A DNA stretch of 63,393 bases, the filler included. It is 3 parts of 3 records of this genome, joined end to end, with 100 filler letters (N's around TTAATTAATTAA, not from the genome) between each part and the next. Parts side by side here need not be neighbours in the genome. Positions count along the whole stretch, not along the records: positions 55,095 to 63,393 come from SRR31156797_339; 2 more parts are not named here. One strand, given 5' to 3'. The notes under the pieces were generated by a model. That model was not told the DNA's origin, did not search any database, and saw nothing but the letters and a program-made list of their open reading frames with translations. A program made the position numbers and the translations under genes. Below are positions 55,095 through 63,393 of this stretch, one piece after another (the stretch's first letter is position 1; every line of letters begins with the position of its first letter).

Positions 55095-55096
55095 CG

Positions 55097-55285
55097 GATG
55101 GTAAAGTTGTTGGGCTAAAATTTCGTATCGGAAAAGAATCCATAAAAGCCAGTTCGGTTGACCGTGCGCTTAGTGCAGCTCGTTTGCAAAAAGCAATTCA
55201 CCAAAACTTCGAGTATCACAATCGGTACAGGAACCGATACCCGAAGAATACTATTCAATCCCATAAAAACAAATTTAGAATTTAA
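55097..55285 (+). CDS. C-terminal fragment of a probable relaxase/mobilisation protein; not in the ORF track
   Basis: Manual translation DGKVVGLKFRIGKESIKASSVDRALSAARLQKAI...KFRI*, resembling the G-x-x-F...K-x-S-x-x-DR-x-x-S tail of Bacteroidota relaxases. The next ATG follows 3 nt after the stop. Confidence 0.55.
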   Translation, partial: DGKVVGLKFRIGKESIKASSVDRALSAARLQKAIHQNFEYHNRYRNRYPKNTIQSHKNKFRI

Positions 55286-55288
55286 GCT

Positions 55289-55582
55289 ATGAGAAAACAA
55301 TTATCGCAACAAAAATTACTGGAGATTTTAATTCATGAAATAGACATGCTCCGGGAAACCAGTAAAAACATTAATGCTATTGCACCGGAAATTGAAAAGC
55401 AATTAAACAAGCTAAAAACAACAGAAGTTAGAGCAACTATCAACACCGAACGCCTTGAGTGGCTTTTTGCAGACCATGAAGAGAAACTGAAAAAGAGTGT
55501 TGTTATACCGAGGTGGTTCTTTGGGATGGTGATTGGAGTAATAACTGGCTTAATCATCAATTGGCTAATTCTGATATTATAA
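55289..55582 (+). CDS. Small coiled-coil protein with C-terminal TM helix (mobilisation accessory-like)
   Basis: Directly follows the relaxase-like frame; C-terminal WFFGMVIGVITGLIINWLILIL. Confidence 0.5.
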   Translation: MRKQLSQQKLLEILIHEIDMLRETSKNINAIAPEIEKQLNKLKTTEVRATINTERLEWLFADHEEKLKKSVVIPRWFFGMVIGVITGLIINWLILIL

Positions 55583-55721
55583 TCAATTTTTTTTTTGAAT
55601 AAATTCTATTTTATTCTAAAAGACTTACTTTTAATGTATTAATTGACGACTAAACGAAACATAAACACCATTGTAAAACTCAAAGAAATCGTTAGATTTA
55701 TTCTCAAATTAACCAAAACCT

Positions 55722-57245
55722 ATGAACATAGAGAGTTATATTGTAAGTAAAGCATCATCAAATACTGAAATCCCAAGGTTACTTACTGATTTTTTGAATC
55801 TTAATGAAAGGATGGCTGCTTGGATATTTAAAAAATCCTTAATGCCTCATTTAGAGCAACTAAAAGACGATGTCTCTTTTTTTATTGAGACGCCCTATGT
55901 TGATAAGGTTTATAGAGATAGCTATTACACCTATTTTTCTTCCAAATTAGGCGACTACAAAAAAGACAGTATACGTTTATCTATTTTTAGCGGTGAAATA
56001 GAAATAGATGATTTCAAGGATGAAGAATCGATTAAATCATTACACGAAAGATATAATGGTTTTATTATCATTCGACCAACCATTTCAAACCTAATAGGTC
56101 GTAGCATCATTTCACCTGAAATTATTAAAGAAAACAATTTTATTATTTGTAAGGCTACTTTTCCAACGACAGTCAATTTTGTGAAATTTAGAACACAAGG
56201 CTTTCCTCATTCTTCGCAAGACGCAGAAACAATATCGTGCGCGGAAACAACTATTTGGGCTATTATGGAATATTTTGGCTTTAAATATGCAGAATACAAA
56301 CCAGTATTACCGTCTAAAATAATTGAAGTTCTACGAAGAGTATCAACTGAACGGCAGATTCCATCAAAAGGGCTTAATATACCTCAAATGGCTTATGCTT
56401 TAAGGGAGTTTGGATTTGGGACTAAAGTTTATTCTCTTTCAGAATTTGGTATTGACGAATTCAAAAGACTGTATAGTTGTTATGTTGAAAGTGGTCTCCC
56501 TATTATTGTGGCGTTAGATAATCGTAGGTTGAGCGGAGACATAGGTCATGCAATAATGGGAATTGGACATGCAACTGTAAGTGAAGACATAGTTGATAAT
56601 TTGAAAGAAACGACAGGCAGTAAGGAAATATCTTCACCTCTGAATAAACCTAAAAAGATAACTCTTTTTGACAATGATGACATCAATAAAGAGTTCATTT
56701 TTAATGATGACAATATGCCGGCATATCAGAAATCGTATTTTGAAAAGCCTGCTGTTCATTATAGTAATAAAGAATGGCACAATTGTGAAATTACCGCATT
56801 TGTTGTTCCATTATATCCCAAAATATATTTGGATGCATATGAAGCAAAAACATTATTTAAACAAGTTCTTTTAAATTATTTCGACATTCCTGATAATTCA
56901 GAAATATATATTCGTTTCTTTTTGACTTCCAGTAGGTCTTTTAAAGATTCGGTTAATTTTAACAAAACCTTTGACGAAGAGGCGAAAGGTCTGGTACTGG
57001 AAAAACCAATGCCAAAGTTTATTTGGGTAGGTGAAATATCAACAAAAGAACTTATAAAAAAAGGACTCGCAAATGGTTTAGTTTTAATTGATGCAACTGA
57101 AGCAAATACTTTATATTTGAAGCCACTAATTATGGCTTTCTATCTAAATAGTTTAATTTCAATAGATTCAAACACGCATTTGCTTTCAGAAAAAACATTA
57201 TCTTTGTCGAATTTTAGTATATTTACCAGTAATCTTAAAAATTAA
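55722..57245 (+). CDS. Uncharacterised papain-like (C39-related) cysteine protease candidate
   Basis: SSQ166DAETISC173AETTIW, GH276AIMGIG, FIFND329DN: the Gln/Cys-His-Asp order of papain-like enzymes. No signal peptide. Confidence 0.65.
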   Translation: MNIESYIVSKASSNTEIPRLLTDFLNLNERMAAWIFKKSLMPHLEQLKDDVSFFIETPYVDKVYRDSYYTYFSSKLGDYKKDSIRLSIFSGEIEIDDFKDEESIKSLHERYNGFIIIRPTISNLIGRSIISPEIIKENNFIICKATFPTTVNFVKFRTQGFPHSSQDAETISCAETTIWAIMEYFGFKYAEYKPVLPSKIIEVLRRVSTERQIPSKGLNIPQMAYALREFGFGTKVYSLSEFGIDEFKRLYSCYVESGLPIIVALDNRRLSGDIGHAIMGIGHATVSEDIVDNLKETTGSKEISSPLNKPKKITLFDNDDINKEFIFNDDNMPAYQKSYFEKPAVHYSNKEWHNCEITAFVVPLYPKIYLDAYEAKTLFKQVLLNYFDIPDNSEIYIRFFLTSSRSFKDSVNFNKTFDEEAKGLVLEKPMPKFIWVGEISTKELIKKGLANGLVLIDATEANTLYLKPLIMAFYLNSLISIDSNTHLLSEKTLSLSNFSIFTSNLKN

Positions 57246-57247
57246 CC

Positions 57248-57445
57248 ATGTTTAAAAAAGTAAGTAAAACCTCTGAAATTAATGCTCGTCTGAAAAAAGA
57301 GGACAAAATTAAGTTTCTCAATTCAGATGAAGACATGAACCAAATTACTGCGATTAATGACTACATGGAAGTTGTTAGAAAGGATTATCAGATAAAAGAA
57401 AGTAAATCTCAAATATCTGCTTCCCATGTTATTTTAAATGCCTAA
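57248..57445 (+). CDS. 65-aa helical hypothetical protein, co-transcribed with the protease
   Basis: ATG 2 nt after the upstream stop; followed by a terminator. Confidence 0.65.
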   Translation: MFKKVSKTSEINARLKKEDKIKFLNSDEDMNQITAINDYMEVVRKDYQIKESKSQISASHVILNA

Positions 57446-57464
57446 TTATTTTAACTCATATAGT

Positions 57465-57491
57465 AAAAAAAGCGCCAATGGCGCTTTTTTT
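57465..57491. terminator. Bidirectional intrinsic terminator
   Basis: A7-GCGCCA-A-TGGCGC-T7 between convergent genes. Confidence 0.8.
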
Positions 57492-57567
57492 ATATCTCTT
57501 ATTTACACTTTCTATATTCTCTATATGAAAAATCATTGTTTAGAATAATTCACTTAATGATTCTATC

Positions 57568-58083
57568 TCATATATTATAATTCAAATTTGTCAAGCGATA
57601 AGTCATTGCTACTTCACTGACTTTAAAAACATTAGCTAATTGTTTTATTGCTTCTTCCACAGTAATACCATCCTCCAGTTTTTCAATCTCATTCTTAATG
57701 AATTTTTCAGGCATTAAAATTGCCGCCGCAAAAGAATTAGCTTCTCTCTCTTTTCGAAGTTCACCTGTAGAAGAACTTTCATTTCTAAATAGAACTTTTG
57801 AGATAAATATATCATCAACTTTATTGCTATGGAACAAATGATGTCCTAATTCATGAGCAATAGTAAATCTCTGTCTAACTTCACTTTCAGTAGCTTTAAC
57901 TGCAATTATATTTTTGTTTTCCTTTGTAAGAAGAAAACCTGATATAGTATCTCCAAACATTCCTTTCTGAACAATTAGCCCTAAGTTTTTGACTACTTGT
58001 TCTATGGGAACCGGAGCCTTGACAATATGTAAACGAGATAATATCTTCTTGGCCCGAAGCTCAATATCATTTGTCTTAATCAT
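57568..58083 (-). CDS. ImmA/IrrE-family Zn metallopeptidase (CapP-like)
   Basis: RQRFTIAHELGH and EREANSFAAAILMP. Confidence 0.92.
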   Translation of the reverse strand: MIKTNDIELRAKKILSRLHIVKAPVPIEQVVKNLGLIVQKGMFGDTISGFLLTKENKNIIAVKATESEVRQRFTIAHELGHHLFHSNKVDDIFISKVLFRNESSSTGELRKEREANSFAAAILMPEKFIKNEIEKLEDGITVEEAIKQLANVFKVSEVAMTYRLTNLNYNI

Positions 58084-58100
58084 GTCAAAATAATTTAAAA

Positions 58101-58442
58101 TTATTCAGATAAAAGTTTAGATGAAATAAAATCCTTTAACATGATACTATCTTCTTCTTTTAAAACCTTTTTATCGATTTTCTTAGAATAAATAGTATCA
58201 TCCATATCGACTGTAGGGATAGAACTGAAAAAATAATTCATGTCAACATTTCCAATAGTTGACATTTTATAAAGAAGATGCACTGTAGGTCTTTGTCTTT
58301 TTTTTTCAATATTAACAATTGAGGCTCTTGAAATATGCAACCTATCAGCAAAAATTTCTTGTGTAAGGTTCAAGTGCTTCCTTAATTCAATTATCTTATT
58401 AGATAAATGCGTATAGAATATTTTTAATTCCTTTTCAGACAT
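58101..58442 (-). CDS. XRE-family HTH regulator (CapH-like)
   Basis: IIELRKHLNLTQEIFADRLHISRASIVNIEKKRQRP. The ATG at 58442 is preferred because the longer start overlaps a -7 box. Confidence 0.88.
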   Translation of the reverse strand: MSEKELKIFYTHLSNKIIELRKHLNLTQEIFADRLHISRASIVNIEKKRQRPTVHLLYKMSTIGNVDMNYFFSSIPTVDMDDTIYSKKIDKKVLKEEDSIMLKDFISSKLLSE

Positions 58443-58458
58443 AAGCGAGTGACTTCTG

Positions 58459-58491
58459 CAAATATACAAAAAAATAGTTTGTTATACAAAC
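58459..58491 (-). promoter_or_regulatory. Promoter of the HTH-IrrE pair, overlapped by palindrome GTTTGT-TAT-ACAAAC
   Basis: Minus-strand TTTG (58490-58487)-N20-TATATTTG (58466-58459); the palindrome at 58477-58491 covers the -33 box. Confidence 0.65.
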
Positions 58492-58512
58492 AATAAATTA
58501 TTTCAATAATAT

Positions 58513-58543
58513 TTTGATTACTGAATTCTTTGATTTATTTTTG
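58513..58543 (+). promoter_or_regulatory. Candidate promoter of the Ubl operon
   Basis: TTTG (58513-58516)-N19-TATTTTTG (58536-58543), matching the Bacteroidota sigmaA consensus. Confidence 0.5.
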
Positions 58544-58579
58544 TCTATAAATAATTAAATGAAAGAAAAATAGAGATAT

Positions 58580-58645
58580 AAAAAAAGCCCAGTTAAAAAC
58601 TGAGCTGCATTTTTAAAAGAAACAATTTGTTCCTTTTTACGTGAG
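58580..58645 (-). ncRNA. Candidate small antisense RNA in the Ubl operon leader
   Basis: Minus-strand promoter TTTG (58681-58678)-N20-TATCTTTG (58657-58650) and minus-strand terminator AGCTCAGTT-TTT-AACTGGGCT-T6. The U-G pair in the stem forms only in this orientation. Confidence 0.45.
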
Positions 58646-58827
58646 ACTTCAAAGATACAGCGTTTCTGCAAAAAATGCAAATTCAGGCCTTTTTACTGTA
58701 TAGTTTATCGATTGCTCAATGATAAATACCAGAGCTTTTTACCTCAATAAATCAAACTACTCTGTTGAGGGAGGGTAGACTTAGAGCTCAATTAATGTTT
58801 TTATAAATCGATAAAAATTTATTTATC

Positions 58828-59070
58828 ATGAAAAAAGATTTAGTTATTATAGTTAATGGTCGAGAAAAAGAATGGAACGATAAGACCATATCGTTTGAGC
58901 AAGTAGTAATACTTGCACTCGGAACATACCAAAACAATGGTAGAACCGCATATACAGTTACCTATACAAGAGGCAATAACGACAAGCCTCAAGGCTCAAT
59001 GGTAGCCGGAGACATAGTGAAAGTAAAACATAAGATGATTTTCAATGTCACAGCTACTGATAAGTCGTAA
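58828..59070 (+). CDS. Ubiquitin-like beta-grasp protein (multi-ubiquitin domain family; BubA-like)
   Basis: IIVNGREKEW..ISFEQVVILA..YTVTYTRG..G.M..GD.VKVK..MIFNVTATDKS; immediately upstream of a ThiF/E1. Confidence 0.85.
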   Translation: MKKDLVIIVNGREKEWNDKTISFEQVVILALGTYQNNGRTAYTVTYTRGNNDKPQGSMVAGDIVKVKHKMIFNVTATDKS

Positions 59071-60229
59071 TGCAGACCTTAAACGTTTAAGAGACGAAGG
59101 TTATAACATTGTAGTGAGTGGTGGGTATTTATTTACCCACCACATACCTTATGTAAATTCTATCAAAAAAATTAAGTTTGGAACCTTAATTTCTGCACTA
59201 AATATGAGTGGCGAAAAAACTGCTAAGCCTAATACTCATGTTATGATGTTTAGCGGAGAATTTCCATGCAACAATCTTGGAGTCCCTATGAACGAGATAA
59301 AACATCCATCGCCGAACATCAATAAAGGCTTTGAGAATGGCATTATTGCAAAACATCAATTCTCAAATAAACCGAGAAACGGCTACTCCGATTTTTACGA
59401 GAAGGTAAAAAGGTACGCTGATATTGTTTCCTCACCGGCAAAATCTATCGACGATTCAGTTACGGAGAAACCATTTCTACCAATAGAAGACAAAGAGGAA
59501 AACAGCATATTTAATTACCTAGACACAAATTCTAGCAGGGCGAATATTGATTTTATAAATAATAAGCTTCGCTCTCAGAAAATTTGTATCGTTGGTTTGG
59601 GTGGAACCGGAGCCTATATTTTGGATATGGTTGCTAAAACTCACGTTAATGAAATTCATATTTATGATGGTGATGTCTTTCTAAATCATAATGCGTTTCG
59701 TTCACCAGGTGCTGCAACTATAACCGAACTTGAAGAACAAATTAGTAAAGTCGATTATTATCAGAAAAAGTATTCGGAGATGCGTAAAGGTATAGTTGCC
59801 CATAATTACTACGTTTTCGAATCCAACTTTAGCGAGTTCTTAAAGTTTGACTTTGTGTTTATTTGCATCGATAATAATCAGATTCGAAAAGCTTTTATTA
59901 GCTTTCTTGTAAAAGAAGGAATCCCTTTTGTTGATGTAGGTTTAGGTGTAAATGTTGTAAATGATTCGTTGATTGGACAAATTAGAGTTACATCGGCCAA
60001 TAAAAACAATAATAGCCACCTGGACAAATATATTCCTGATGGTGATGACACGGATAACGACTATGTAACCAACATTCAAATAGCTGAACTAAACCTGTTA
60101 AATGCAGGTTTTGCAGTGCTTAAATGGAAAAAGATGTTCGGTTTCTATCAAGACCTTGAAACTGAATTTCACTCAACTTACTCAATCAATAATTCTTTTT
60201 TGAATAATGAAGCAAGAAGTGAAATTTAA
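59045..60229 (+). CDS. N-terminal DUF6791/E2-like domain fused to ThiF/E1 adenylyltransferase
   Basis: DLKRLRDEGY, IPYVN, FSNKP in the N-terminal domain; IVGLGGTGAY, YDGDVFLNHNAFRS, FICID in the E1 domain; 26-nt overlap with the Ubl. Confidence 0.85.
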   Translation: MSQLLISRNADLKRLRDEGYNIVVSGGYLFTHHIPYVNSIKKIKFGTLISALNMSGEKTAKPNTHVMMFSGEFPCNNLGVPMNEIKHPSPNINKGFENGIIAKHQFSNKPRNGYSDFYEKVKRYADIVSSPAKSIDDSVTEKPFLPIEDKEENSIFNYLDTNSSRANIDFINNKLRSQKICIVGLGGTGAYILDMVAKTHVNEIHIYDGDVFLNHNAFRSPGAATITELEEQISKVDYYQKKYSEMRKGIVAHNYYVFESNFSEFLKFDFVFICIDNNQIRKAFISFLVKEGIPFVDVGLGVNVVNDSLIGQIRVTSANKNNNSHLDKYIPDGDDTDNDYVTNIQIAELNLLNAGFAVLKWKKMFGFYQDLETEFHSTYSINNSFLNNEARSEI

Positions 60230-60614
60230 GTTTGTTAAATCAGTTCCTGATTCTCTGGAATCGGGAACTGTTTACATTTCGACTCATTACAACACAGCTA
60301 TACATAATTGCATGTGTGGCTGTGGTAATGAAGTTGTGACTCCATTATCGCCAAAGGATTGGCGTTTCTGCTATGACGGAGAGAATATCTCTTTAAGTCC
60401 ATCCATTGGAAATTGGAGTTTTGAATGTCAGTCACACTACTGGATTGAGTCCGGGGAAGTGGTTTGGGCTCAAAGTTGGTCTAAACACAGAATCAAAAAA
60501 AATAGAAAGGCTGATGCCTTAAACAGAAAAATCAACAATCAGATATCCGGAAAGTCCAAAAGATGGAAATCAATTTTGTATCGACTATTTAGTTTTTTAA
60601 ACATTAAATTTTAA
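60207..60614 (+). CDS. DUF6527-like Zn-binding protein
   Basis: AIHNCMCGCGNEVVTPL..W..SLSPSIGNW..CQSHYWI; 23-nt overlap with the E1 gene. Confidence 0.82.
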   Translation: MKQEVKFKFVKSVPDSLESGTVYISTHYNTAIHNCMCGCGNEVVTPLSPKDWRFCYDGENISLSPSIGNWSFECQSHYWIESGEVVWAQSWSKHRIKKNRKADALNRKINNQISGKSKRWKSILYRLFSFLNIKF

Positions 60615-60618
60615 AACA

Positions 60619-60867
60619 ATGGGTTATCAACATAAAAAAGAACAGGTTTGGGATAAAGGTCAAAAAATGAGAGGGAAAGACCCTGACCTTTACCGGAAAG
60701 ATAAAATGGGTAATGTTATGTACAAACCTTCATATGGGAAATCAAGTCAAATGGGTTGGGAGATTGACCACAGCAAGCCACAGTCCAAAGAAGGAACTGA
60801 CCATTTGAATAATTTACAACCGATGAACACTTCTGCAAATAGAAGTAAAGGAGATAAAAGGTTATAG
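60619..60867 (+). CDS. Minimal HNH endonuclease
   Basis: GWEIDHSKPQSKEGTDHLNNLQPMNTSANRSKGD; ATG 4 nt after the upstream stop. Confidence 0.88.
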   Translation: MGYQHKKEQVWDKGQKMRGKDPDLYRKDKMGNVMYKPSYGKSSQMGWEIDHSKPQSKEGTDHLNNLQPMNTSANRSKGDKRL

Positions 60868-60876
60868 CTAGGATAT

Positions 60877-60911
60877 TCTTGTCGCAAATTTAGTAAACAT
60901 TTGCGACAAGA
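60877..60911. terminator. 13-bp perfect hairpin closing the Ubl-HNH operon
   Basis: TCTTGTCGCAAAT...ATTTGCGACAAGA; no strong U tract. A second hairpin lies at 60928-60948. Confidence 0.55.
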
Positions 60912-61305
60912 CTTGTATCTCTATGTCCTGCAATGCACTGTATTGCAGTATGTTGTAAAAATTAAATCAGCGAGCCCCCTCTAGCAAAAAACATTTTCAT
61001 AGCTATTCAATGGCACTGGGGCACAAACCCTACCACAAAATAACTACATTTCCGAAAGACAAGCTCTGAGGGTTTTCAAAAGCTTTGGCATAAATCATTC
61101 ATTCCAAAATCGGAAGAGTTAATTCCGACCAACACACAATGCCAATTTCAAAAAGACTTAACCTCGTATAATTCGGTCAAAACTTTATGAAATCTCACAT
61201 TAACACTTCCGCTTTTTCCATTCATTTTTTATTCCTTTTCCTTTTGAAAATCTTTCGGAAATGTTGCCGGAGATGTTTACGGATTTGAACTGAGAATGGA
61301 TGTGG

Positions 61306-62073
61306 TTAATCTAAAGAGAAGATTGTTTTAATTTGCTGGAACACAGAAATTGCATCTATAGCCCCTAAGCCCATTTGTTTAAAGATTGCTTTGTCAGGTA
61401 ATTCTTCGGAAATTGAATTAACGAAAGCTTTAAGGTCATTTTTTATTCCAGCCGGTAATTCAACCTTATGCCCTGCTGGTAATAATACTGCCAATCGAAA
61501 TATATCTGTTTTATGTTTTTTGATGTTCCTACCATCAATATTTTCACCCTCCAGTTTTCGTTGTGTTAAATCCAGAAATGCTTTTGCTTTTAAACAAATT
61601 AATGCTTCTTCGGCCGCAAAGTGAGCACCCTCTTCCGTCTTGCTATTGGCTATGGTGAATTTATAATATTCCTTGTCCATCAATATTGCTGAAAGACTTG
61701 ACAAATCATCATCGACAGGAATAGGTGTTAAGTGAGGTTCTCCTTCCAGGTCCATTAAATCGGGAATCGTTGAGAAGAGTTCAATTTGAAGAGGAAAACC
61801 ATTGGTTTTTGGTTTTATAAAACGATAATATTTTCTTTCATCTTCGCTTTTTTCCCGTCTTTGATAGTCTCCATCATTAATGAACTCCCAGAACTTTTGA
61901 ACAAATTCCTTGGTTAAAGCTTCAACTATTAAAATTATATCGATGTCTTTAGTTGCCCTGGCTTCAAACCCAGCATCGTCAATTATAACATCACATGCCG
62001 TACCTCCGATGATTATGTAATTCTCGGAATAGTTTTTAAAATATTCTTTAAATTTTTCCAGCCCTCTAACCAT
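61306..62073 (-). CDS. AbiEii-like (Pol-beta superfamily) nucleotidyltransferase, putative toxin
   Basis: IIIGGTAC, RATKDIDII, ICLKAKA, KKHKTDIFRL; 8-nt overlap with the upstream gene. Confidence 0.75.
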   Translation of the reverse strand: MVRGLEKFKEYFKNYSENYIIIGGTACDVIIDDAGFEARATKDIDIILIVEALTKEFVQKFWEFINDGDYQRREKSEDERKYYRFIKPKTNGFPLQIELFSTIPDLMDLEGEPHLTPIPVDDDLSSLSAILMDKEYYKFTIANSKTEEGAHFAAEEALICLKAKAFLDLTQRKLEGENIDGRNIKKHKTDIFRLAVLLPAGHKVELPAGIKNDLKAFVNSISEELPDKAIFKQMGLGAIDAISVFQQIKTIFSLD

Positions 62074-63070
62074 AGATATATTTCTCTTTTATTTGTTCCA
62101 ATGCCATTTCAATCCTTTCGTCCGATGTGTTTTTCAAAGTTAAATACAAAGATAAGGGGTCAGCTATAAACTCAGTAGAAATTGTTAAGAGCCCTGGATT
62201 ATATTTCCAAACCTCTAAGCAATAGTTTCCTTCTGTAGGATTTGCATTTAGAAACAAGTTTTGTTTGTTTAATCGATTGTATTCTGTTCTTCCTATAGCC
62301 ACATAGTTTTGTCGGCTCGGATTCATATCTGAGTATTCTGGTAATGCAGATGTATTGCAGTCCCATATTTTTATCCCAGCAGGAAGTTCGTCGATATAAA
62401 CACGTTTAAATACCGGATAATTCCAGAAATCGTTTTCCTCAATTTTTTCCCAAAGCTTTACCTCTTCGTAACTGAATTGAATGTATTTTTCTTTTTCACC
62501 AGCAATTGTAATTAAGCCAAGTACCTGAAGATTGTCGACAGCTTTGCTAATTGCCATTGGAGAATAATCCAACTTTAAAGCTATTTCTTTAAACGGCTTC
62601 TGCTCCATATCCCATAACTCACTTAATCCTAAAATCTGGTATAGTACTATAACTTGTGCCGATGGTATTAATTTCTGTTTTTCTTTAATTGAACTTTTTA
62701 TTGTATTCCCGCCTTTTAGGTCTATCAACATTTCTGGAAGAAAAAGTTGCTTCCCTGGTACAATAAAATTCACTTTCTTTTTTGTCAGCCTGATACGGTT
62801 ATATGACACCACGTGGTCGAGTATAAGAACTACGGTTTTATTGAATAGTTTCTTTAGATTGCTTAACTGTTTCTCGGTCTGGGCAATTGATATATTATCT
62901 TCATCGACAAGTTGCACCAATACCAATTCTGCACCTAAAAGTCTGGTTGTGTAAATTTTATACAATTGTTTTACATACATCGGAAGTTTTGATACCTTGT
63001 GTTCAGGTAATCGGTTCACAACAATTATTTCGCCGAGTACTTCCTTTATATATTCCTGAAGACTTTTCAT
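62066..63070 (-). CDS. AbiEi-like winged-helix regulator/antitoxin
   Basis: FIVPGKQLFLP, EIALKLDYSPMAISKAVDNL (wHTH), SALPEYSDM, DPLSLYL, DERIEMA. The ATG at 63070 is preferred. Confidence 0.7.
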   Translation of the reverse strand: MKSLQEYIKEVLGEIIVVNRLPEHKVSKLPMYVKQLYKIYTTRLLGAELVLVQLVDEDNISIAQTEKQLSNLKKLFNKTVVLILDHVVSYNRIRLTKKKVNFIVPGKQLFLPEMLIDLKGGNTIKSSIKEKQKLIPSAQVIVLYQILGLSELWDMEQKPFKEIALKLDYSPMAISKAVDNLQVLGLITIAGEKEKYIQFSYEEVKLWEKIEENDFWNYPVFKRVYIDELPAGIKIWDCNTSALPEYSDMNPSRQNYVAIGRTEYNRLNKQNLFLNANPTEGNYCLEVWKYNPGLLTISTEFIADPLSLYLTLKNTSDERIEMALEQIKEKYIYG

Positions 63071-63072
63071 AG

Positions 63073-63127
63073 TAAACTTAATTTTGCACAATAAACCGAC
63101 TAAGTATATTGTGCAAATATAGGTTTA
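63073..63127 (-). promoter_or_regulatory. Long inverted repeat overlapping the -7 box of the TA operon
   Basis: Perfect core TTTGCACAATA (63083-63093) / TATTGTGCAAA (63107-63117), extending to 18/21-bp arms; TATATTTG on the minus strand at 63121-63114. Confidence 0.7.
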
Positions 63128-63139
63128 TTATATTAATAA

Positions 63140-63391
63140 TCAAACAACAATGCATTTGTAGGTTAAAAAGCCGACATGCTCATTAAACTCAACATATCCA
63201 AGCTGGCAGGTAAGCAATTTTGATTTTCCAATCGTAAAATCAGAACCATTCTGATGATGGTGACCAAATATCCAGAAATCAATATCTGAATCCATTATTA
63301 AATCATGTAACTCAACAGCGAAAGCCGCATTTAAGCTACTACCTTTATATTTTTTGGGATAACTCAGCATTGTTGGAACATGATGGGTTAC
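63140..63391 (-). CDS. Calcineurin-like metallophosphoesterase, C-terminal part (5' end beyond the window)
   Basis: The frame stays open to the window end: VTHHVPT...WIFGHHH...QLGY. Confidence 0.82.
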   Translation of the reverse strand, partial: VTHHVPTMLSYPKKYKGSSLNAAFAVELHDLIMDSDIDFWIFGHHHQNGSDFTIGKSKLLTCQLGYVEFNEHVGFLTYKCIVV

Positions 63392-63393
63392 CA

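Follow-up and report, generated by a model that had tools for sequence, protein, structure and literature searches.

The window analysed here is a stretch of DNA of 63,393 nucleotides made of three parts of three records of one genome, with 100 filler letters between the parts. Its last part (positions 55,095–63,393, record SRR31156797_339) contains an operon of the class called Type II Bub, which encodes a conjugation system for a ubiquitin-like protein (Ubl), and this operon is followed by a small gene for a predicted HNH nuclease, the subject of this work. A pair of regulator-like genes lies upstream on the opposite strand. The features of the locus, with E-values given after the names of the matching profiles, are:

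57568–58083, minus strand: CapP/ImmA-like M78 zinc peptidase of 171 amino acids (aa), a short form without a C-terminal GAF domain (Peptidase_M78, 1.2e-23; PADLOC capP, 2.6e-34)
58101–58469, minus strand: CapH-like XRE-family helix-turn-helix (HTH) repressor, 122 aa (HTH_3, 6.4e-11; PADLOC capH, 3.4e-7)
58470–58827, no strand assigned: divergent capH-like/bubA intergenic region, presumed from its position to hold promoter and operator
58828–59070, plus strand: BubA, a single β-grasp ubiquitin-like protein, 80 aa (Multi_ubiq, 7.5e-16)
59045–60229, plus strand: BubBD, an E2-like domain (DUF6791) fused to an E1-like ThiF domain, 394 aa (DUF6791, 4.4e-53; ThiF, 9.7e-14; NF004805, 1.8e-163)
60207–60614, plus strand: BubE, DUF6527, 135 aa (DUF6527, 6.6e-25)
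60241–60270, plus strand: hairpin with a 13-bp stem in the 5′ part of bubE, just past the BubBD stop (terminator-like scan; −20.2 kcal/mol, z −5.7)
60619–60867, plus strand: predicted stand-alone HNH (ββα-Me) nuclease, 82 aa (Pfam, conserved residues, AlphaFold2 model, ratio of nonsynonymous to synonymous substitution rates, dN/dS)
60877–60911, plus strand: perfect inverted repeat of 13 bp that follows the HNH gene, a candidate terminator without a T-run (−16.8 kcal/mol, z −6.2)
60928–60948, plus strand: second, weaker hairpin, also without a T-run (terminator-like scan; −10.8 kcal/mol, z −3.3)

The open reading frame (ORF) at 60619–60867 matches the Pfam families HNH (PF01844; E 2.4e-5; 24.8 bits, cut-off 21.4) and HNH_4 (PF13395; 23.9 bits, cut-off 22), and its ATG stands 4 nt past the stop of the DUF6527 gene. 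The translation has 13 lysines among its 82 residues and carries the motif E48-I49-D50-H51, followed by N65 and N74. An earlier note on this DNA had described a lysine-rich HNH protein of this length, with an EIDH motif, that starts 4 nt after a DUF6527-like stop in an operon for Ubl conjugation; all of this is borne out, the predicted catalytic motif being intact and the operon being Type II Bub beside a CapH/CapP-like repressor/protease pair. The frame is a real gene and not a chance ORF, because all 242 homologue candidates returned by a word-indexed search pass E ≤ 0.001 and because its dN/dS is low. The latter was calculated against the nearest relative, locus L001, from a Saccharicrinis metagenome-assembled genome (MAG), whose BubBD is 87% identical to that of the window and whose DNA is 79% identical over window positions 58562–63391. 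The HNH gene has a dN of 0.052, a dS of 1.0 and a dN/dS of 0.05, and the corresponding ratios of BubA, BubBD and BubE are 0.08, 0.08 and 0.19, respectively. The fourth operon position has therefore been constrained since the two genomes split, and the window HNH is a constrained gene, not a decaying passenger.

BubA, BubBD and BubE stand at 58828–60614 in the order published for Type II operons, and we follow the names and the Type II definition of that work, which reports DUF6527/BubE to be a serine protease and finds CapH and CapP adjoining 168 of 544 Bub operons (PMC11601596). The published Type II (6E.2/DUF6527) operons share with the window the same three core genes in the same order and a CapH/CapP-like pair, whereas their description in the available text has no fourth gene where the window has the HNH (PMC11601596). 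Nowhere does the main text of that paper use the words ‘HNH’, ‘nuclease’ or ‘effector’; its supplementary tables may list neighbours.

The HTH and M78 genes (57568–58469, minus strand) lie upstream of the Bub operon and face bubA. Matches to a σ70-like promoter in the region between them (58470–58827) number 16, no excess over the shuffle mean of 17.1. The CapP-like protein covers only positions 2–154 of the 242-position PADLOC capP profile, does not have the peptidase-HTH-GAF architecture, and, as we take it, resembles a short ImmA-type peptidase. CapP is reported to be activated by single-stranded DNA (ssDNA) (10.1101/2022.04.27.489752; 10.64898/2026.05.16.725639), and its GAF part is reported to help form the ssDNA groove, about half of it (10.64898/2026.05.16.725639). 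The ‘damage sensor’ of the earlier note would correspond to this CapH/CapP-like gene pair, and for a short form that lacks the GAF part the role of sensor is putative.

The HNH gene is very probably the last cistron of the Type II Bub operon, which agrees with the earlier proposal of co-transcription, the transcript itself being suggested by the 4-nt gap. That proposal had also placed the first strong hairpin after the HNH gene, which proved incorrect: a stronger one (−20.2 versus −16.8 kcal/mol) lies inside bubE at 60241–60270 and is followed by the U-rich tail UUUACAUUU. L001 retains part of it (−17.0 kcal/mol), whereas L081, a second Type II operon in the genome of L001, does not; it could be an internal attenuator or a chance structure. 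The inverted repeat at 60877–60911 is conserved in L001 and was not flagged by the terminator scan; folded together, the two hairpins downstream of the HNH gene reach −35.2 kcal/mol (z −5.8).

The window HNH belongs to a large family of very small proteins. The best 120 homologues listed by the word-indexed search are 67–86% identical to it and nearly all 80–90 aa long, and a profile search of 1.84 billion representatives returned 2549 members at E ≤ 0.001 (846 at E ≤ 1e-10), most of them of 80–120 aa. N65 does not vary across 86 diverse members, and each of W11, R26, D28, G40, G46, W47, D50, H51, P54, G59 and N74 is retained by 90% or more of them. All four of D50, H51, N65 and N74 are invariant in 27 close relatives, as are K13, K41 and K77. 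We take D50-H51 to be the general-base histidine with its preceding aspartate and N65 and N74 to be metal ligands, by analogy with HNH nucleases. Zinc-binding cysteines are absent from the family.

An AlphaFold2 model built from a shallow alignment (27 sequences, 66–83% identical) reached a predicted local distance difference test score (pLDDT) of 51.6 and was discarded. The model from a deeper alignment (pLDDT 85, predicted template modelling score 0.67) consists of an N-terminal helix, a small hairpin, strands 47–51 and 66–70, and a helix at 71–78, and thus contains the two-strand hairpin and helix that form the core of the HNH superfamily. A Foldseek search of the Protein Data Bank (PDB) with this model gave no match at E ≤ 0.001; except for rank 1 (6itw, Atu4351), its weak rows are all HNH nucleases, and the core superimposes on colicin E9/E7, ZRANB3, Gme HNH and the Cas9 HNH domain with deviations of 0.8–1.8 Å over 32–36 columns. 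In a VIA comparison with 48,161 chains, the top 24 rows consist without exception of HNH nucleases and HNH domains, with Z-scores of 5.5 for IscB, 5.2 for Cas9 HNH, 5.1 for EcoKMcrA, 4.7 for Gme HNH and 4.3 for Cap5.

The best matches in sequence as well as in structure are the HNH domains of Cas9, IscB and Cas8f (Cas8f-HNH, E 2.3e-4, and Cas9 HNH, E 5.9e-4, are the nearest solved chains by sequence; among structures, IscB has a Z of 5.5 and GeoCas9 of 5.2). The window HNH and these domains presumably share a cysteine-free site of the D-H…N…N type. They are, however, domains of large RNA-guided proteins, whereas the window HNH is a whole protein with no guide machinery nearby. It is similar in size to Gme HNH, the stand-alone Mn-dependent nicking endonuclease of Geobacter metallireducens (PDB 4H9D, chains of 81–97 residues), which VIA superimposes on the model with a root-mean-square deviation of 2.8 Å over 62 residues and Foldseek, for the core, with 0.8 Å over 32 columns. 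Gme HNH differs in that it is only 14–25% identical to the window HNH and was missed by a sequence search of the PDB, and the lack of zinc-binding cysteines in the window HNH family counts as a further difference; its genomic context is, to our knowledge, unrelated.

Considering motif and model together, the window HNH is probably an active minimal nuclease. That it is instead a non-catalytic small DNA-binding or regulatory protein, which has merely kept an HNH-like fold, would suit its small size and basic character, and one relative with tandem HNH units (P0121) has lost the catalytic histidine to tyrosine in three of its four repeats. Because D50, H51, N65 and N74 are invariant or nearly so in the stand-alone members, the window copy included, we consider this explanation very improbable. 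P0121 is a 306-aa protein, and four further relatives of about 300 aa (P0135, P0136, P0152 and P0189) have an HNH unit flanked by repeats, Ser/Thr-rich low-complexity tails and weak matches to the PBCV basic adaptor domain.

Relatives of the window HNH are found in Bacteroidota, Clostridia, Alphaproteobacteria, Planctomycetota, Dehalococcoidia, Spirochaetes, archaea and other groups, with 53–89% identity across phyla. The gene is present in one copy in each of five genomes checked and, likewise singly, in 14 of 401 Bacteroidota genomes. A scan of 2.9 million viral contigs yielded 20 relatives, six of which align over at least 70 residues at 44% identity or more; with so few true members there, a phage origin was dropped as the main explanation.

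The distribution also bears on the possibility that the gene is a selfish, homing-endonuclease-like element that inserts between the genes of mobile defence islands and has no role in the operons that carry it. When the window is compared with 50 other loci, similar DNA extends over the HNH ORF and at most about 20 nt upstream of it, only L001 having the flanks in common with the window, and the gaps to neighbouring genes are tiny. The gene is moreover sporadic among close operons: the genome of L001 (G001) has two Type II Bub operons, L081 without the HNH (BubBD 71% identical to that of the window) and L084 with it (87%). A wide spread across phyla at the identities given above would be expected of such an element, too. 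Homing genes, however, decay fast, whereas this family is very highly conserved and the window copy is under purifying selection in place (dN/dS 0.05). In addition, the gene is single in every genome checked (5 of 5, and all 14 positives of the 401), it has only about six true members in the viral contigs, its position relative to M78 genes, described below, is not random, and 82 aa leave no room for an extra DNA-recognition domain that could read a long target site. We therefore regard a selfish element as distinctly unlikely.

Loci of the family were collected from one genome per species, which gave 112 relatives; the best 80 loci were kept, and all counts out of 80 on the HNH side refer to these. 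In tblastn searches with the window proteins, just two loci proved to have Bub beside the HNH, L001 and L070 (a Clostridia MAG, BubBD 47% identical to that of the window), and the other 78 have no Bub alongside. From the Bub side, 521 BubBD relatives were found in metagenomes, and among the best 80 loci BubE was present in 75, with at least 300 nt of sequence past BubE in 69. A hidden Markov model (HMM) of the HNH family had no match downstream of BubE in any of these 69 Type II loci, and one of the 80, L185, has the HNH upstream of BubA. In Bacteroidota, PF20137 scored above its cut-off in 24 of 401 genomes and 14 loci were assigned to Type II by full-length BubBD; none of the 13 non-seed loci has the HNH within about 1.4 kb downstream of BubE. 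In the phylum to which L070 belongs, PF20137 was above cut-off in 4 of 401 genomes, and neither of the two additional Type II loci there has the HNH. Four of the 14 HNH-positive Bacteroidota genomes also have DUF6527; in the three of these that are non-seed genomes, 96 kb separate the HNH from DUF6527 or the two lie on different contigs.

Beyond the window and L001, the HNH is thus absent from the sampled Type II Bub operons, save for L070 and L185, and across relatives it is not a recurring component of such operons. The association of the family with Bub is occasional, and the family is no Bub component. The suggestion in the earlier note that the HNH may be an effector or conjugation target of the Bub operon is therefore not supported as a Bub-specific role: downstream of DUF6527 homologues it is rare (0 of 69, 0 of 13 and 0 of 2), Bub accompanies it in 2 of 80 loci, and its steady partner is a pair of HTH and M78 genes. 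Where the HNH does adjoin Bub, it does so in three arrangements, directly after BubE (window, L001), after BubE and one more gene (L070), and before BubA (L185). The genes at L185:1715–4679 are all on one strand, in the order HTH, M78 peptidase, HNH, BubA and BubBD, with the HNH between regulators and Bub. At L070:3613–8357, a CapP/HTH pair diverges from BubA-BubBD-BubE, after which come a hydrophobic protein of 125 aa, the HNH and a CHAT protease; L062, L069 and L075 have the HNH paired with CHAT without Bub. Two other Bub loci, L090 and L098, have small ORFs that overlap or follow BubE and look DUF2188-like, by eye only.

To describe what the HNH travels with, ORFs were called, clustered and mapped in the neighbourhoods of the 80 loci, and M78 genes were found with an HMM grown from the M78 cluster. 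An M78 peptidase gene lies within 7 kb of the HNH in 24 loci, upstream in all 24 and downstream in none, and within 1.5 kb upstream in 21. The other 56 show no M78 within 7 kb; as some loci have less than 1 kb of upstream sequence, the M78 counts are lower bounds. Three arrangements with such regulators recur.

In arrangement A, which comprises about 12 Bacteroidota-type loci (L002–L008, L011, L013, L014, L017 and L024) and includes the closest relatives of the window HNH, an operon of a 198–269-aa protein, CapH and CapP diverges from the HNH gene across about 100 bp. PADLOC matches there are capH at 4e-5 and 3.9e-7 and a full-length capP at 2.4e-57 (profile positions 8–241 of 242). Of the cargo of these switches, the HNH alone is both sizeable and conserved, and the genes after it vary. 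Seven of the loci share two tiny ORFs after the HNH, one for a basic protein of 44 aa and one for a 46-aa protein with two CxxC pairs, and neither was found in the window. The first protein of the regulator operon has no match in Pfam; its C-terminus resembles σ factor region 4, by eye only. According to Lau et al., σ factors stand beside 24 capH-capP pairs (10.1101/2022.04.27.489752). A compact form, seen at L003:1737–4267 and likewise in L004–L008 and L013, has the 198-aa protein, CapH and CapP on one strand and the HNH with the tiny ORFs on the other, and is a candidate minimal damage-controlled system.

Arrangement B (six genomic loci and L185) has HTH, M78 and HNH on one strand, followed by variable genes: DUF3892 (L043, by Pfam at 2.2e-10, and L046, where the same arrangement was judged by gene clustering), Fic (L047), CHAT (L062), genes without assignment (L050, L074) and Type II Bub (L185). 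Arrangement C has the HNH at the end of an operon from which the regulator pair diverges; it is found in the window (Bub), L070 (Bub, one gene without assignment, the HNH, then CHAT) and L063. At L063:2922–7260, a CapP/HTH pair diverges from an operon of two proteins without assignment (102 and 162 aa), a BilC-like JAB protein and a BilD-like E1 (matches to BilC at 3.7e-11, BilD at 4.3e-7 and Prok-JAB at 1.7e-6), which ends in an HNH of the family; as judged from these matches, the Bil-like operon is a second kind of Ubl system with the HNH. In L012, L025 and L054, fused HTH-M78 proteins flank the HNH, one of which matches PD-Lambda-2_B at 1.3e-53.

Other partners were found where no M78 gene was. 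Seven loci have the HNH as the first cistron of a CBASS operon (antiphage signalling based on cyclic oligonucleotides), with no M78 found near it: five have Cap15, CD-NTase and E2, one has CD-NTase, E2 and a patatin-like protein, and one has CD-NTase and TIR-STING. E2 is thus present in six of the seven, the five Cap15-type loci being one operon lineage and therefore not independent. Where M78 was not found, the nearest neighbours are mostly defence genes, with some housekeeping genes; among 106 nearest neighbours were AAA_21/AbiLi (five), ThsB (three), SoFic (three), a pPIWI-nuclease (two), a methylase with UvrD (two) and integrases (two). Overall, the HNH is found at the edges of defence operons of six or more kinds, including CBASS, Thoeris-like, CHAT and Bil-like ones, and the family is a mobile accessory of defence loci with the HTH and M78 switch as its steady partner.

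These neighbours allow an assessment of whether the HNH is coupled to Ubl conjugation, either as a lysine-bearing target of BubA or as a nuclease that conjugation would switch on, switch off or oligomerise. The three arrangements next to Bub, the Bil-like operon of L063 that ends with the HNH, and the E2 genes of six of the seven HNH-linked CBASS operons are all consistent with such a coupling, as are the maintenance of the position after BubE at a dN/dS of 0.05 and the lysine content (13 of 82 residues, with K13, K41 and K77 invariant in the 27 close relatives). The E2 count shrinks in weight, however, since five of these CBASS loci are a single lineage, and many partners of the family have no conjugation machinery at all: σ-like protein, CapH and CapP alone, ThsB, TIR-STING CBASS, CHAT, the pPIWI-nuclease and AbiLi. 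Together with the lack of Bub in 78 of 80 HNH loci, the zero counts after BubE in the other Type II loci, and the silence of the main text of the Bub papers (supplementary tables aside) on HNH, nuclease and effector, this makes a coupling to conjugation improbable in our view.

The same data raise the question of whether the HNH belongs to the input of the switch. It could generate or amplify the signal in a sensor module by nicking phage or host DNA to give ssDNA, which would activate CapP-type peptidases; in the window, where the HNH itself would be under the repressor, this would amount to a positive feedback by which the cell becomes committed to complete induction. The family tracks the regulator pair while the cargo after HTH-M78-HNH varies (DUF3892, Fic, CHAT, genes without assignment, Bub), M78 is upstream of the HNH in 24 of 24 cases and never downstream, the HNH occupies the 5′ edge of CBASS and Thoeris-like operons, a usual place for regulators, and CapP, as cited above, responds to ssDNA. 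An amplifier role would explain why the gene tracks regulators and sits at the 5′ edge of CBASS operons despite the toxicity expected of an unregulated, non-specific nuclease. In the divergent capP-capH/HNH loci, by contrast, nothing else sizeable is conserved and the HNH looks like the output; 56 of 80 loci show no M78 within 7 kb; and in the window the HNH is at the end of the operon farthest from the regulators. We consider an amplifier unlikely. The broader form of this idea is equally unlikely: the family of about 80 aa would be an undescribed third component of CapH/CapP-type switches, a tiny nickase that makes the ssDNA signal and moves with the switch between cargos (Bub, Bil, CBASS, CHAT, Fic, DUF3892), and its presence in the window would complete a loop of positive feedback on the Bub operon.

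The explanation we prefer, to which we give a slightly better than even chance, is that the HNH is an independent small DNA nuclease, the output of a regulator-controlled operon, and needs no Ubl conjugation. It is favoured mainly because in arrangement A the switch has no other conserved cargo of appreciable size. According to this model, a Type II Bub operon facing an HTH and M78 pair captured the gene in the window, where it became the last cistron. Upon cleavage of the repressor, the HNH would be made alongside BubA, BubBD and BubE, both the shared transcript and the CapH/CapP-like control being presumed from gene order and homology. The basic N-terminal half of the protein would bind DNA, its putative substrate, and the metal site formed by D50-H51…N65…N74 would nick or cut it, the HNH acting alone.

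Several observations weigh against this explanation. (i) Residue 58 of the window HNH (60790–60792), within the KGG motif ahead of the TDH turn, is Glu, a position at which 90% or more of the 27 close relatives, L001 among them, have Gly. (ii) The VIA Z-scores, at 5.5 or below, are modest, and the tool warns that a Z below 8 can be unspecific. (iii) The hairpin inside bubE may reduce read-through to the HNH gene. (iv) As the CapP-like protein has no GAF part, control of the window operon by damage is uncertain. (v) In the seven CBASS loci without a nearby M78 gene, an unregulated non-specific nuclease would be toxic, which points to a restricted substrate or a role other than that of an effector. 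(vi) The HNH recurs near Ubl and E2 systems (Bub in three ways, the Bil-like operon of L063, and CBASS with E2 in six loci), and this tie could be functional.

Among known systems, the nearest described analogues of the family are DUF2188 and DUF3892, reported as small genes that occur with pairs of HTH and metallopeptidase genes and with varied defence cargo (10.1101/2022.04.27.489752). At L043 the HNH stands between M78 and DUF3892. Burroughs and Aravind, as cited by Lau et al., reportedly link DUF2188 and DUF3892 to HTH-metallopeptidase pairs as well. The HNH family differs from both in its predicted enzymatic site, and it is not mentioned in the available text of the former work (10.1101/2022.04.27.489752). 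Cap5, PtuB of Septu and the retron-associated HNH (retron Ec83), all of which are found in defence loci, have the same fold as the window HNH at modest scores (Z 4.3, 3.2 and 3.8, respectively). None of the PADLOC models of these effectors matched the window protein, its sole PADLOC match being Cas9 (E 0.0076); PtuB and Cap5 gave no match at E ≤ 0.01, and the window operon contains no PtuA or SAVED gene. Cap5 and PtuB presumably carry sensor or partner domains (SAVED, the PtuA interface) that have no counterpart in the 82-aa HNH. The word ‘HNH’ does not occur in the main texts of two Bub preprints, the CapH/CapP preprint, the preprint on the CapP mechanism and the CapK/CapS paper. A full-text literature search for HNH together with CapH/CapP, DUF3892 or ImmA/IrrE, which left subscription papers and supplements largely uncovered, returned nothing on this HNH family.

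The genes on either side of the locus are of interest in their own right. Right after the HNH, at 61306–63091 on the minus strand, are two overlapping genes for proteins of 341 aa (weak match to a MarR-type HTH, E 0.0019) and 255 aa (weak match to AbiEii, E 0.0052), which are conserved in L001 at 70% and 79% identity, respectively, and may be AbiE-like. Just beyond capP, at 55722–57445 on the plus strand, a gene pair encodes proteins of 507 and 65 aa; it is absent at the corresponding position of L001, and neither protein has a match in Pfam, NCBIfam or PADLOC.

We know of no effector or target of Bub operons. A nuclease fixed to Bub would have been a strong clue, but the analysis shows that it does not hold in general. 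The picture is rather one of a very small, highly conserved, multi-phylum HNH family that stands beside HTH and M78 regulators and at the borders of defence operons, and the window HNH is thus a lead to an undescribed switch-associated family. If its members are stand-alone regulated nucleases, the loci that consist of a σ-like protein, CapH, CapP and the HNH would rank with the smallest modules for defence or suicide triggered by damage. If, on the other hand, the HNH feeds the sensor, this would explain how switches of the CapH/CapP type gain their sensitivity.

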